NCBI GenBank assembly: GCA_964631415.1
Contig: CAZVZC010000005.1
Span: 2,018-66,017 of the forward strand
Direction of reading: 5' to 3'
Source of the DNA: an uncultured archaeon
GTDB taxonomy: Archaea; Asgardarchaeota; Thorarchaeia; Thorarchaeales; Thorarchaeaceae
Length of the DNA stretch: 64,000 bases
Position numbers and translations under genes: made by a program. Below the pieces are notes generated by a model. The model did not search any database. It had not been told where the DNA came from and saw only the letters and a list, made by a program, of their open reading frames with translations. Below, in pieces: positions 3,847-62,527 of this stretch; position 1 is the stretch's first letter, and every line of letters begins with the position of its first letter.

Positions 3847-4914
3847 TCAGTCGCAAGACGAAGGCTTCACTCGTCCGAGCTCGGACGAATCAAAAAGCCG
3901 CTTCATCTTTTCCTCGTTGGGCCTACGAACAACTCCTCGATCCGTGATGATTGCCGAGATGAAACTAGGTGGAGTGATATCAAATGCGGGATTGTAGACT
4001 TTCGCAGTTGGCACAGTGACATACTGGCCATTTATGATTCGAACCTCGTCTGGATGCCGCTCCTCAATCACAACGTCCTCAGGTCTAGTTGCCATGTCGA
4101 TTGTGGACGTGGGTGCAGCTACGTAGAACGGTATTCTGTGATGCTTCGCCACTATGGCCATTGTGTACGTGCCGATCTTGTTTGTCACATGACCGGTCCT
4201 GAGTATTCTGTCGGCGCCAACGACGCAGCAGTCGACCCTCTTCTCGCGGAACACCGTCCCAATCATCCCATCAGTTATGAGTGTCGTATCTATGCCGTCC
4301 TGCATGAACTCGAACACCGTCAACCTCGCACCTTGCTGTCGTGGGCGGGTTTCAGCTGCATAGACCTTGATGTTACCGTACTTCTCATGGGCCATACGGA
4401 CTACAGCACCGACAGTACCCAAGTGAACGGTCGCGAGAGAGCCAGCATTGCAGATTGTCTGAATGATCCATCCCGGCTTGATTAGAGGTAGCGCATTCTC
4501 ACCAATCCGCCTACACATCCGGACGTCTTCCTCAGCGATCTCCTTAGCCTCATCAATCAGTACTCTGGTGATCTCACTTGCAGTTCCATCAAGACCTCTG
4601 GCGGCTTTCAACATGCGGTCCGTTGCCCAAGTCAGATTGACTGCTGTCGGACGCGTGTTCAGAGTTGTTGCAGCGCGCTCGAGATGATGGAGCAGTTCAT
4701 CTTTGGTCCGGGCATTGCTCTCAACTGCAGCCAAGGCCATGCCCATACCTGCAGCGGCACCGATGGCAGGAGCTCCCCTGATTTCCATTGCCCTGATTGC
4801 GTCTGCTATGCGTTCATGACTCGTAGTGGCAATGAATTTGATCTCCAACGGGAGCCGGGTCTGGTCCACAAACTGCACTCTGCCGTCATCAAGCCATTCT
4901 ATGGTTCGGAACAT
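3847..4914 (-). CDS. mtnA: Methylthioribose-1-phosphate isomerase / aIF-2B-like family protein
   Basis: 355 aa. N-terminus MFRTIEWLDDGRVQFVDQTRLPLE...AIRAMEIRGAPAIGAAAGMGMALAA and VVGADRI...G.V.NKIGTY are typical of the MtnA/eIF2B alpha-beta-delta family. Confidence 0.85.
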   Translation of the reverse strand: MFRTIEWLDDGRVQFVDQTRLPLEIKFIATTSHERIADAIRAMEIRGAPAIGAAAGMGMALAAVESNARTKDELLHHLERAATTLNTRPTAVNLTWATDRMLKAARGLDGTASEITRVLIDEAKEIAEEDVRMCRRIGENALPLIKPGWIIQTICNAGSLATVHLGTVGAVVRMAHEKYGNIKVYAAETRPRQQGARLTVFEFMQDGIDTTLITDGMIGTVFREKRVDCCVVGADRILRTGHVTNKIGTYTMAIVAKHHRIPFYVAAPTSTIDMATRPEDVVIEERHPDEVRIINGQYVTVPTAKVYNPAFDITPPSFISAIITDRGVVRRPNEEKMKRLFDSSELGRVKPSSCD

Positions 4915-5438: not shown

Positions 5439-6161
5439 ATGCGTGAGATGCTTCTCGCCAATTGCTTCGACGAAGGGTTTTTCTCGTGTCGGTTGAGGTC
5501 TTCGTGTACTAGGCGAAGACTGTTGCCCCATAAAGATGGCGAAGAGCCCAATCCGGAAGACTTCGACAATGCCGAGGAAGAGATTGTCGAGGAGGAGTCC
5601 CTAGAGCCTGCAGAGGAGCCTGCAGAGGTCATCTTCAGCGAGGGGCGTGGCTATGTTGCAGGCGACAATGCTGACAGGATATCGCAGCAGGGCTTCTATG
5701 GCACTCGTTTGGATGACGGCAGGCTCCAGATTGACCCCGTTGAGATTCTCCACCTTCTGGAACGGAAGAGAGTCTTTGTGAGGTCTGTCAGTGGGGATTC
5801 AATTGAGGCAAGACGCGTCGTAGATGAACTGCTTGATGATGACCCAGATCTGTGGACACGCTATCTCGTGTATCGCGACCTTAGAAGCAGGGGCTACGCA
5901 GTACGCCAGGGGTTTGGTGGAGGAATAGGGTTCAGGGTGTATGCAAGGGGTGACAGGCCCACGGAGAAGACAGCCAACCAGCTTGTCTATGTACTCAAGG
6001 AGGGCGAACCCATTGCGCTCCATGACCTAGATATGGTGACAGAAGCAGCTTCTACTGCACGAAAGAAACTGGTCTTCGCTCTCGTTGACCAGAACGGTGA
6101 AGTCAGTTTCTATAAGGTTTCCCGGACAACACTGCGTGCCTTGGCAGGTGAGTCTGAATGA
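5439..6161 (+). CDS. endA: tRNA-splicing endonuclease EndA homolog with an acidic N-terminal extension
   Basis: The C-terminal half YLVYRDLRSRGYAVRQGFGGGIGFRVYARGDRPTEKTANQLVYVLKE...ARKKLVFALVDQNGEVSFYKV aligns with M. jannaschii EndA ([44 protein letters not shown]...VRKKLLIAIVDADGDIVYY). The start is uncertain: ATG 5439, or the in-frame TTG at 5523. ATGA overlap with the next gene. Confidence 0.8.
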   Translation: MREMLLANCFDEGFFSCRLRSSCTRRRLLPHKDGEEPNPEDFDNAEEEIVEEESLEPAEEPAEVIFSEGRGYVAGDNADRISQQGFYGTRLDDGRLQIDPVEILHLLERKRVFVRSVSGDSIEARRVVDELLDDDPDLWTRYLVYRDLRSRGYAVRQGFGGGIGFRVYARGDRPTEKTANQLVYVLKEGEPIALHDLDMVTEAASTARKKLVFALVDQNGEVSFYKVSRTTLRALAGESE

Positions 6162-11177: not shown

Positions 11178-11234
11178 AGAGCAGGTGGACTCCTCTGTTC
11201 TTGTCCCAGAATGACACTCGTCTTCAAGAGTAGG

Positions 11235-11242
11235 CTTTTATA
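11235..11242 (+). promoter_or_regulatory. TATA-like element CTTTTATA upstream of tRNA-Thr
   Basis: It lies 29-36 nt upstream of the tRNA 5' end (11271). Confidence 0.45.
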
Positions 11243-11270
11243 CGAAATATAGTGAGAGCAGTCTAGGACT

Positions 11271-11408
11271 GCCCCAGTTGCATAGACCGGTTAGTGCACC
11301 TGACTTGTATGTGGAGAGGCATGGACCTCTCAACTACGTCATCAGGTGGTCGCGAGAACCGTCTGCTCTCCAAGCAGGCGATCGCGGATTCAAATCTCGC
11401 CTGGGGCT
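11271..11408 (+). tRNA. tRNA-Thr (anticodon TGT) with two introns (37/38 and 53/54)
   Basis: Acceptor GCCCCAG/CTGGGGC. D arm GCAT-AGACCGGTTA-GTGC. Anticodon stem CCTGA/TCAGG, loop CTTGTA|31-nt intron 11310-11340|A. T stem GCGAG|32-nt intron 11357-11388|TTCAAAT-CTCGC. Both introns fold into BHB motifs. CCA is encoded. The track ORFs 11263..11700(-) and 11294..11593(+) overlap it and are spurious. Confidence 0.8.
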
Positions 11409-11522
11409 CCATCTCCATCCCTGATGTTGATTGGATTCCGTGCATGAACTGCAAAGGGCTGAAAGCCAGAAGCCGGACGGATGGACACAACCCTAGCCAT
11501 CCAGTCACTACTGTGATTGCCG

Positions 11523-12746
11523 CTACTTCATCCTCTTCGCCGCGTCCTCGAGTGCAGCAATCAGCTCGAGCTTCTTCCCCGTCAAGAAGTTGATGGTCGC
11601 ACCACCACCTGTGCTTATGTGGGTGATTTTGTCGGCGACTCCTTTCATCTGTGCAACGGCACCCATGTGTCCTCCGCCCACTATGGTGACACCCTTGCAC
11701 TTGACGATTGCATCCAACACTTTCTCAGTCCCGGTGGCAAATGGCGCCTTCTCGAAGTATCCCATCGGTCCGTTTGCGAACACCACGGCCGACTGGCTTA
11801 CTGTCTTGGCGAATCTATCGGTTGTCATAGGACCAATGTCCAGGAGTGGAGCACCCTTCATCTGGTCCAGTTTGCACTCGACTCGTTTGCCGTCCTTCTC
11901 TACTGCAGCATCGCTTGGGAGCCCTATGACCTTCGGATACTTGTCCAGGAGCTGTTTCGCGAGCGCCAGTGATGACTCATAGCCCTTGATTGGGGCTGCG
12001 TACTCCTTCGGAATGGTGCCTTGTGCCACAAGAAACAGAGTTCCCACAAGACCTCCAAGGAGTGCATTGTCCACTCTGCCAGTTGCCAGCAGTTTCTCTA
12101 GTGTCTTGACCTTGTCTTCGACCTTGCTTCCACCGAGAACTAGCGTCCATGGATGCTTATCTGTCGCAGTTGCAGCCGTAAGAGTCCGTATCTCTTTCTC
12201 TACCAGCCGCCCTGCTACTGAAGGCAGCACTGCCGTGAAGCCAACGATTGAGGGCTGGGCTCGGTGTGCCGCTCCAAAAGCATCGTTGGCGAAGAGATCA
12301 AAGAGAGGATAGAGTTCCTGAACTATCGGCTCCTTCGACATCTCCTCGGGTGTGCCAGTCTTCATCTCACCATCGAAGTACCGCGTGTTCTGAAGGACCA
12401 GAGACTCGCCCACCTTCACCTTCTTGATTGCGTCTTTTGCCTTTTTGCCAAAGATGTCGTCAACAAAGGACGCTCTGAGTCCCTTCTTCTTCATTACCTC
12501 GACATGCTTCTCAAGCGAAGTAAAGTCCTCATCACCAGGACGACCTTGGTGTGCCATGACGACGACCTTGCTCTTGGTGAGCTCCTTCAGCGTCGGTAGA
12601 GTTGCTACTATTCTTGAGTCATCAAGGATCTCTTTCGTCTTCGGGTCCAAAGAGCAGTTCAAGTCAGCCCGCACAAGGACACGTTTTCCTGCGTATTCCA
12701 CATCACTAAGCGTCTTGAATGGAAGTGTCAAGTATGTTCCCCGCAC
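11523..12746 (-). CDS. pgk: Phosphoglycerate kinase
   Basis: 407 aa. Motifs RVLVRADLNCSLD, VMAHQGRPG, NTRYF, GGSKVEDK and STGGGA. Confidence 0.95.
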   Translation of the reverse strand: MRGTYLTLPFKTLSDVEYAGKRVLVRADLNCSLDPKTKEILDDSRIVATLPTLKELTKSKVVVMAHQGRPGDEDFTSLEKHVEVMKKKGLRASFVDDIFGKKAKDAIKKVKVGESLVLQNTRYFDGEMKTGTPEEMSKEPIVQELYPLFDLFANDAFGAAHRAQPSIVGFTAVLPSVAGRLVEKEIRTLTAATATDKHPWTLVLGGSKVEDKVKTLEKLLATGRVDNALLGGLVGTLFLVAQGTIPKEYAAPIKGYESSLALAKQLLDKYPKVIGLPSDAAVEKDGKRVECKLDQMKGAPLLDIGPMTTDRFAKTVSQSAVVFANGPMGYFEKAPFATGTEKVLDAIVKCKGVTIVGGGHMGAVAQMKGVADKITHISTGGGATINFLTGKKLELIAALEDAAKRMK

Positions 12747-12966: not shown

Positions 12967-13101
12967 TGCCGCAGGGGGGATTTGAGCCCCCGACTTCGAG
13001 ATTGCTCAACTTACCAGTGTTGAGACTTGACCCCATGTGTACCCTGAGGACTTCAGGGAGATTATGAGTCTCGCGCCCTAAACCAGCTAGGCCACTGCGG
13101 C
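12967..13101 (-). tRNA. tRNA-Met or Ile2 (anticodon CAT; elongator type) with a 60-nt canonical intron
   Basis: Minus strand. Acceptor GCCGCAG/CTGCGGC. Anticodon stem CGAGA/TCTCG, loop CTCATA|intron 13003-13062|A. A perfect 4-bp helix CTCA:TGAG precedes the splice-site bulges. T arm GGGGG-CTCAAAT-CCCCC. Discriminator A and CCA are encoded. G1:C72 argues against an initiator. Confidence 0.8.
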
Positions 13102-19049: not shown

Positions 19050-19152
19050 TGGGGCGGACGAGACTTGAACTCGTGACCTACTCGGTGTAAGCGAGTCATC
19101 ATGGCCGATCTAGACCACCCTATAGAGGAGTGGTTGTCTAGACTACCGCCCC
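19050..19152 (-). tRNA. tRNA-Val (anticodon TAC) with a 28-nt intron in the D-loop
   Basis: Minus strand. Acceptor GGGGCGG/CCGCCCC. Anticodon arm ACTCG-CTTACAC-CGAGT. T arm ACGAG-TTCAAGT-CTCGT. The D region is interrupted by intron 19108-19135. The BHB is central helix CTAG:CTAG, bulges AC|A and AT|C, distal helix ACCAC/GTGGT. Splicing yields the D-loop AGACCGGCCA. CCA is encoded. Confidence 0.8.
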
Positions 19153-54386: not shown

Positions 54387-54397
54387 AATCCCAATGG

Positions 54398-54504
54398 TGC
54401 TCCGGCCGGGATTCGAACCCGGGTCTGGGGATCGAGAGTCCCCAATGCTGGGCCGGACTACATTCGGCCGCACAACGAATCTGACTCGGTGCGTCTACCG
54501 GAGC
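54398..54504 (-). tRNA. tRNA-Glu (anticodon CTC) with a 32-nt intron between positions 10 and 11
   Basis: Minus strand. Acceptor GCTCCGG/CCGGAGC. Anticodon arm GGGGA-CTCTCGA-TCCCC. 4-nt variable loop. T arm CCGGG-TTCGAAT-CCCGG. The intron is 54463-54494. The BHB is central helix CGGT:GCCG, bulges AG|A and AA|T, distal helix CGCAC/GTGCG. The spliced D arm is GTG-TAGTCCGGCCCAG-CAT, typical of tRNA-Glu. CCA is encoded. Confidence 0.8.
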
Positions 54505-54758
54505 TTGGGCTGTGCCAGCCCGGAGCGGGCCATCACCCTCTACGAAGCAAATAAGGCTTTCTCTGCAAAGACGCGGTATTTTCGATTTGAGAGGGATGCT
54601 GGCAAAGAACTACGGTCTATCATTGAGCGAACCATGGATGGTTTCAGAGCACCAGCCACGTTTCCGATTCGTTTCAACCTGGCTTGCTCACTTTCAATGA
54701 CAGCCGATTGAATCCAAACATTCAAGCGGCCTCGATCTGCTTACCGTGACTGGGTGTA

Positions 54759-62424: not shown

Positions 62425-62527
62425 GCGGCCATGGTCTAGTATGGTCTAGGACGGGAGCCTCCCAAGCTTCCAACCCGAGACGGTTTCATTGACAGTGACC
62501 GCGGGAGTTCAAATCCCGGTGGCCGCA
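62425..62527 (+). tRNA. tRNA-Gly (anticodon CCC) with a 28-nt intron at 53/54
   Basis: Acceptor GCGGCCA/TGGCCGC. D arm GTCT-AGTATGGTCTA-GGAC. Anticodon arm GGAGC-CTCCCAA-GCTTC. T stem CCGAG|intron 62480-62507|TTCAAAT-CCCGG. The BHB is central helix CCCG:CGGG, bulges AG|A and AG|T, distal helix CGGTT/GACCG. The spliced T stem has an A52.C62 mismatch. CCA is encoded. Confidence 0.75.

Follow-up and report, generated by a model that had tools for sequence, protein, structure and literature searches.

Archaeal tRNA genes with multiple or non-canonical bulge-helix-bulge (BHB) introns have been described in several surveys (Marck and Grosjean 2003; Sugahara 2007, 2008; PMC4090602), and position 53/54 is explicitly listed among the known non-canonical intron sites (review PMC4090602). 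Introns of this kind are known from Thermoproteales, other TACK groups and DPANN as well as from several Asgard classes (PMC4090602, PMC11291895, PMC5829648). Multi-intron tRNAs have been published for Asgard archaea in particular, where most tRNA genes are interrupted, many by several non-canonical introns at BHB-compatible sites (PMC11291895; preprint 10.64898/2026.10.13.758758). These Asgard studies centre on Atabeyarchaeia, Freyarchaeia and Jordiarchaeia, and the term 'Thorarchae' is absent from the main text of the preprint (10.64898/2026.10.13.758758). The origin of introns in Asgard tRNAs is still open in current work (PMC11291895; preprint 10.64898/2026.10.13.758758). A heterotetrameric (alpha-beta)2 splicing endonuclease EndA carrying the crenarchaeal-specific loop L1 has been reported for Asgard archaea, including one Thorarchaeota genome (Kaneta 2018, PMC5829648), and the same work ties this enzyme form to cleavage of relaxed motifs.

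The gene analysed here lies on a 64,000-nt stretch (the window) of a metagenome-assembled Thorarchaeia draft genome of 2.16 Mb in 81 contigs, 85% complete. An initial annotation of the window had read positions 11271-11408 as a tRNA-Thr(TGT) gene with two introns, and on re-reading of the sequence all of its coordinates and motifs for this gene agreed with ours (Table 1). As in the catalogued archaeal examples, the introns are short and have a 4-bp central helix between two 3-nt bulges, one of the two sites is 37/38 and the other is a different one, and the host encodes an EndA of (alpha-beta)2 type. Those catalogues are drawn mostly from Crenarchaeota and Thermoproteales, where related introns recur in different tRNAs through transposition, whereas here neither intron has a related second copy: blastn-short against the whole assembly, and against the fetched loci, returned only self matches as significant. 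The gene resembles the interrupted Asgard tRNAs, differs from the classes on which those studies centre in coming from Thorarchaeia, which it adds to the Asgard classes with multi-intron tRNAs, and differs from the published Asgard introns in that intron 2 may preserve a trace of how it arose. The initial annotation had also called the two-intron arrangement a strong lineage marker. This was only partly right and too strong, because several archaeal phyla have such introns and in this class they are routine; two-intron tRNA genes are already known and are common in the Thorarchaeota lineage.

Table 1. Parts of the tRNA-Thr(UGU) locus and the two EndA-family genes of the assembly (window coordinates unless another sequence is named).
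Feature	Coordinates	Strand	Description
Candidate TATA box TTTATA	11237..11242	+	~29-30 nt 5' of the mature end; read from sequence
Exon 1	11271..11309	+	tRNA positions 1-37: acceptor 5' strand, D arm, anticodon stem 5' strand, C32-A37 with anticodon UGU
Intron 1	11310..11340	+	31 nt, canonical 37/38, relaxed hBHBh'
Exon 2	11341..11356	+	tRNA positions 38-53: A38, anticodon stem 3' strand, variable loop UGGUC, T stem 5' strand GCGAG
Intron 2	11357..11388	+	32 nt, position 53/54, HBh'
Exon 3	11389..11408	+	tRNA positions 54-73: T loop UUCAAAU, T stem 3' strand CUCGC, acceptor 3' strand, discriminator U
EndA, non-catalytic (beta-type) paralogue	5439..6161	+	240 aa, tRNA_int_endo domain
EndA, catalytic	L031:1474-2040 (G000:C16)	minus	188 aa, outside the window

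Removal of both introns joins 39, 16 and 20 nt into a 75-nt tRNA-Thr(UGU). The initial annotation had predicted a normal 75-nt cloverleaf with T arm GCGAG-UUCAAAU-CUCGC and had suggested ARAGORN as a check; ARAGORN called the spliced 75-mer as tRNA-Thr(tgt), with that T arm. All stems of the spliced product are perfect, and it is identical at 67 of 75 positions, with no gaps, to the intron-less 75-nt orthologues L018 and L020. The conserved residues U8, A14, G18G19, U33, A37, G53-C61, U54U55C56 and A58 are all placed only under the two-intron splice. Threonine identity for this anticodon comprises UGU in a 7-nt loop, U33, a purine at position 37, G1-C72, C2-G71 and U73. The spliced product has the anticodon loop CUUGUAA, the Thr-type acceptor GCCCCAG/CUGGGGC and discriminator U73, as expected of a tRNA-Thr(UGU). 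Its acceptor and T arm agree with those found in other Thr genes of Thorarchaeia, and exon 1 is 90% identical to that of Thr(TGT) genes of a related genus (L002-L004). Directly after the discriminator, 11409-11411 encode CCA. Two open reading frames overlap the gene, 11263-11700 on the minus strand and 11294-11593 on the plus strand, and both gave only Pfam matches below threshold. The locus is thus very probably a real threonine tRNA gene with two short protein-spliced introns, and from its sequence we infer that the tRNA-Thr(UGU) precursor is transcribed, cleaved and ligated. Transcription probably starts from the candidate TATA box ~30 nt upstream, a spacing compatible with a short-leader archaeal promoter; this box was unchanged in a contig of sequencing run X8.

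Standard tRNA finders read the unspliced gene poorly. ARAGORN called no tRNA at 11271-11408 in the raw window, and reported Thr(tgt) with a 31-nt intron once intron 2 alone had been removed. A Thr-specific covariance model (R1) split the gene into two partial matches of 33.1 and 11.7 bits and gave no two-intron parse. The Rfam tRNA model (RF00005) covered 11271-11408 end to end at 34.0 bits against a cut-off of 29. The intron-less orthologue L018 scored 65.1 bits on the same model, a proxy only, as this score belongs to the orthologue and not to the spliced 75-mer. The RF00005 parse contains a single 65-nt insert and mismatched anticodon and T stems, and assigns GCAGG, CGAU and GCGGA of intron 2 to the anticodon stem, the variable loop and the T stem. 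Taken literally, this parse would mean one anticodon-loop intron of ~63-65 nt, with 11373-11388 (A-GCAGG-CGAUC-GCGGA) supplying the anticodon stem 3' strand, the variable loop and the T stem 5' strand, and this segment is indeed identical to exon 2 at 11 of 16 positions. We consider such an arrangement very improbable. It leaves a mismatch at A31.G39 and another, A53.C61, at the invariant G53-C61 pair, and its implied 3' cut lacks a bulge or a 4-bp helix, with C32 facing C(-3), whereas the two-intron splice gives perfect stems and the gapless orthologue match. Rfam prefers a single insert because, in a covariance model, two long inserts cost more than a small number of mismatches. As ARAGORN misses the gene and Rfam barely passes and mis-parses it, the genome's sole decoder of ACA codons would seem to be missing if the gene were not read with two introns.

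Intron 1 has both flanking helices of the motif. Its outer helix (h) is the anticodon stem, its central helix places 11304-11307 (C32-G35) opposite 11335-11338 (UACG) with three of four positions paired, and its 3-nt bulges are 11308-11310 (UA|U) and 11339-11341 (UC|A). In the inner helix, 11311-11319 with 11326-11334, eight of nine positions are paired, including GAGAGG/CCUCUC. This 6-bp hairpin and the C32:G(-3) pair, both noted in the initial annotation, are present in the sequence. The remaining central positions are a U33.C(-4) mismatch, U34:A and G35.U. RNAfold predicted the 3' bulge exactly and placed the 5' side in another register. The tRNA-Thr(TGT) genes of related genomes have no intron, one at 37/38, or two to three (D loop plus 37/38), and in those of other genera (L002, L003, L008, L019) the 37/38 intron has a perfect CUUG:CAAG helix. 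Intron 1 therefore occupies a site that is already interrupted in several genera. As read from these sequences, its predicted central helix is relaxed and weakened compared with that of its relatives, because of the U33.C mismatch and G35.U.

In intron 2 the central helix is complete, with CGCG at 11351-11354 (C48-G51) pairing with CGCG at 11383-11386 at four of four positions, between bulges at 11355-11357 (AG|A) and 11387-11389 (GA|U). Nine of ten positions pair in the inner helix (11358-11367 with 11373-11382), which opens with a single A-U pair followed by its one C.A mismatch; nine inner pairs were reached by only 2 of 20,000 shuffles. An outer helix is impossible here, as 47:55 is U.U. 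The description of this intron in the initial annotation as a textbook BHB was accurate for the central helix, the bulges and the ten-position helix with one mismatch, but overstated in the word textbook, since the outer helix is missing. Each of the two introns thus has a central helix, relaxed in intron 1, with two 3-nt bulges and at least one flanking helix, both h and h' in intron 1 and h' alone in intron 2 (HBh'). The motif of intron 2 requires an opened T stem, and the conformer showing both motifs lies ~13 kcal/mol above the predicted minimum.

The design of intron 2 recurs across the class. We searched for the pattern CGCGRG, 24-40 nt, CGCGNN, T loop and T stem, which matched in 55 of 87 Thorarchaeia genomes and never in reversed controls. 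Matches in intron-less tRNA-Leu genes, in which the anticodon arm and variable arm imitate the pattern, were removed by hand, leaving 49 distinct introns at 53/54. Their hosts are Thr(GGU, CGU), Leu(CAG, UAG, GAG), Lys(UUU), Ala(UGC, GGC, CGC) and His(GUG), with Thr(UGU) represented only by the present gene, and for nearly all 49 ARAGORN called the expected tRNA after removal of the intron. The eight inner pairs from i2:(-7) to i9:(-14) are each paired in 86-100% of the introns, with between three and six standard pair types per position, and i2:(-7) is paired in all 49. Overall inner-helix pairing is 89%, and drops to 37-47% once the partner is shifted by 1-3 positions. These data record a 53/54 intron design that recurs in five isotypes and covaries clearly. 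Across 301 sampled genomes of the phylum, other Asgard families showed the design sporadically.

Intron 2 shares with this class the cut after 53, the C48-G51:CGCG helix, the length of 30-32 nt, the absence of an outer helix and an inner helix that begins at i2:(-7), and its C.A at i3:(-8) also occurs in seven other introns. It differs in its first bases (AAC, against ACY, AUY or UYU in the others), in its 3' bulge (GA, against mostly AA or UA), and in being the only member that resembles tRNA exon sequence. No nearest relative stood out among the 48 other 53/54 introns, the best score being equalled by 29% of all pairs.

The same gene is present on contigs from three other studies. One 151-nt contig of X7 (record 11) spans 11311-11461 with zero differences. 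Two 151-nt contigs of X8 cover 11185-11335 and 11318-11468, the latter (record 15) with two differences, both in the 3' flank and outside the gene. A 412-nt contig from a diverged strain (X1) covers the gene from end to end and differs from it at just two sites, 11316 (G>A) and 11335 (U>C), each of them in intron 1; the second change turns G35.U into G35-C. Downstream of the gene, 114 nt of this contig carry over a dozen substitutions and many indels. Intron 2 is thus identical in the contigs of two further studies and unchanged in the diverged strain. These data bear on the possibility that the gene is an artefact in which the assembly joined two alleles or two Thr genes, which might be suspected of a metagenome-assembled draft in 81 contigs and of an intron 2 that is tRNA-like. 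We regard this as scarcely credible: single 151-nt contigs (X7, X8) run through intron 1, exon 2, intron 2, exon 3 and the flank, the longer contig of the diverged strain covers the whole gene, and the joined intron-less form was not seen among the contigs of the other studies.

A damaged or decaying tRNA gene is a less remote alternative, in which a partial internal duplication, our intron 2, would stay in the transcript, no working tRNA would result, and ACA would be read by an unassembled gene. The resemblance of intron 2 to tRNA positions 22-53 in register, the weaker central helix of intron 1, the fact that the motif-showing conformer is not the predicted minimum, and the incompleteness of the assembly would all fit such decay. 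However, intron 2 fits the BHB geometry of the 48 other introns exactly, down to the invariably present i2:(-7) pair, and the exons and intron 2 have not changed in a strain whose flank has diverged strongly. Moreover, no other Thr(UGU) gene was found in the assembly, and multi-intron tRNAs are the rule in this genome and in the window. We therefore judge decay improbable and retain the reading as a spliced two-intron gene. The two introns at 37/38 and 53/54 proposed in the initial annotation are borne out by the gapless orthologue alignment, by covariation among the 49 introns, by genes for EndA and RtcB, and by the recovery of the same DNA in independent metagenomes.

The assembly encodes two EndA-family proteins. 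The catalytic one most resembles 3P1Z_B (E 8e-49), the catalytic subunit of the heterotetramer from Aeropyrum pernix, retains the Tyr/His/Lys residues, and aligns gaplessly in the N-terminal loop region. The paralogue within the window retains Tyr and Lys, and has Thr at the position of the catalytic His. An RtcB ligase is also encoded (591.7 bits). By these gene sequences the host would have a heterotetramer-type EndA, a cutter of relaxed motifs, together with an RNA ligase. As in described (alpha-beta)2 enzymes (PMC5829648; A. pernix 3P1Z, 3AJV), there are two paralogues, one catalytic and one not, and the catalytic protein aligns with the A. pernix alpha subunit end to end, including the loop region. 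Unlike in those enzymes, the predicted non-catalytic paralogue is 240 aa long and has a long N-terminal extension, ~65 aa with an acidic stretch, which lies outside the matches to solved EndA structures.

These elements suggest how the precursor could be processed. Its two introns would each offer a BHB motif. At 37/38, the anticodon stem, the four-position central helix with three pairs and the nine-position inner hairpin would frame two 3-nt bulges. At 53/54, C48-G51 would exchange their T-stem partners for the CGCG of the intron, creating the AG|A and GA|U bulges and a ten-position inner helix. The (alpha-beta)2 endonuclease would cut each bulge after its second base, RtcB would ligate the three exons, and the T arm GCGAG-UUCAAAU-CUCGC could then fold.

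The Thr-specific covariance model aligned exon 2, intron 2 and exon 3 together as a tRNA, and we therefore compared intron 2 directly with tRNA exons. Its 32 nt are exactly the span of positions 22-53. Within it, a 7-nt loop closed by a 5-bp stem (UCUGC-UCUCCAA-GCAGG) precedes CGAU-CGCG-GA, a layout that parallels the anticodon arm, variable loop and T-stem 5' strand. With the comparison anchored on CGCG, the 24 nt before it matched the exon of the same gene at 13/24 positions and Thr(CGU) genes of other genera at 15-16/24; one Ala(UGC) gene also matched at 15/24. The other 48 introns reached at most 11/24 against any exon segment. Among hairpin-preserving permutations, 119 of 50,000 equalled the best match and 330 of 50,000 the match to the own exon (p ~0.002-0.007, post hoc). 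A general test of exon echo over all 49 introns, using the 11 nt before CGCG, was negative, with a mean of 2.5/11 that is below the permuted mean; the echo is therefore particular to this gene.

A tentative explanation, less likely than not and resting on a post hoc observation in a single gene, is that intron 2 is young and arose from a 32-nt in-register partial duplication of positions 22-53, or from unequal recombination between two Thr isoacceptor genes. As the reverse complement of CGCG is again CGCG, two copies would pair and thereby create the 4-bp BHB helix and both cuts after 53 at once, and the copied anticodon arm would become the inner helix. If true, this would provide a concrete, testable route for the birth of a BHB intron, by duplication across a self-complementary tetranucleotide.

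Three Thr genes are present in the assembly, those for CGU and GGU, each with a 37/38 intron only, and the present UGU gene. With only one Thr(UGU) gene found, it is the only ACA decoder found in this 85%-complete assembly. The phosphoglycerate kinase encoded next to it is 88-89% identical to proteins of Candidatus Thorarchaeota metagenome-assembled genomes. In the closest named relatives (L033, L034), too, a tRNA-Thr(TGT) gene follows the phosphoglycerate kinase gene at a distance of ~110 nt, on the opposite strand (4324-4432, minus strand), but it has a different, CGU-isoacceptor-like body and a single 35-nt intron. This body matches the Thr(CGT) gene of the present genome (G000:C1:159067-159172), and the L033/L034 gene looks like an anticodon switch from CGT to TGT. 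Judged by this CGU-like body and single intron, Thr genes appear to be replaced or remodelled between close lineages.

Rfam tRNA matches in the assembly number only 25, most of them longer than 95 nt, and many tRNA genes in this genome are probably hidden by several introns. Four further tRNA genes in the window have inserts. In tRNA-Gly(CCC) (62425-62527, plus strand) there is a 28-nt intron at 53/54 with a CCCG:CGGG helix, bulges AG|A and AG|U and an inner helix; its spliced T stem would have an A52.C62 mismatch, and Rfam shows a 35-nt T-loop insert. The 5' acceptor strand GGGGCGG of tRNA-Val(UAC) (~19051-19152, minus strand) is found ~30 nt upstream of the start given by ARAGORN and Rfam, and the gene has a ~28-nt D-region insert between GTCTAGA repeats. 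A ~33-nt insert follows the 5' acceptor strand of tRNA-Glu(CUC) (~54396-54505, minus strand) directly, at about position 8/9, because of which Rfam covers only model positions 9-63; the 75-nt ARAGORN call of this gene has a wrong 5' end. Finally, tRNA-Met(CAU) (12967-13101, minus strand) has a 60-nt insert in the anticodon region, the core of which, ATGGGGTCA, is shared with the matching inserts of other genera (L046, L047). This suggests that the core may be a conserved element within the tRNA-Met(CAU) intron.
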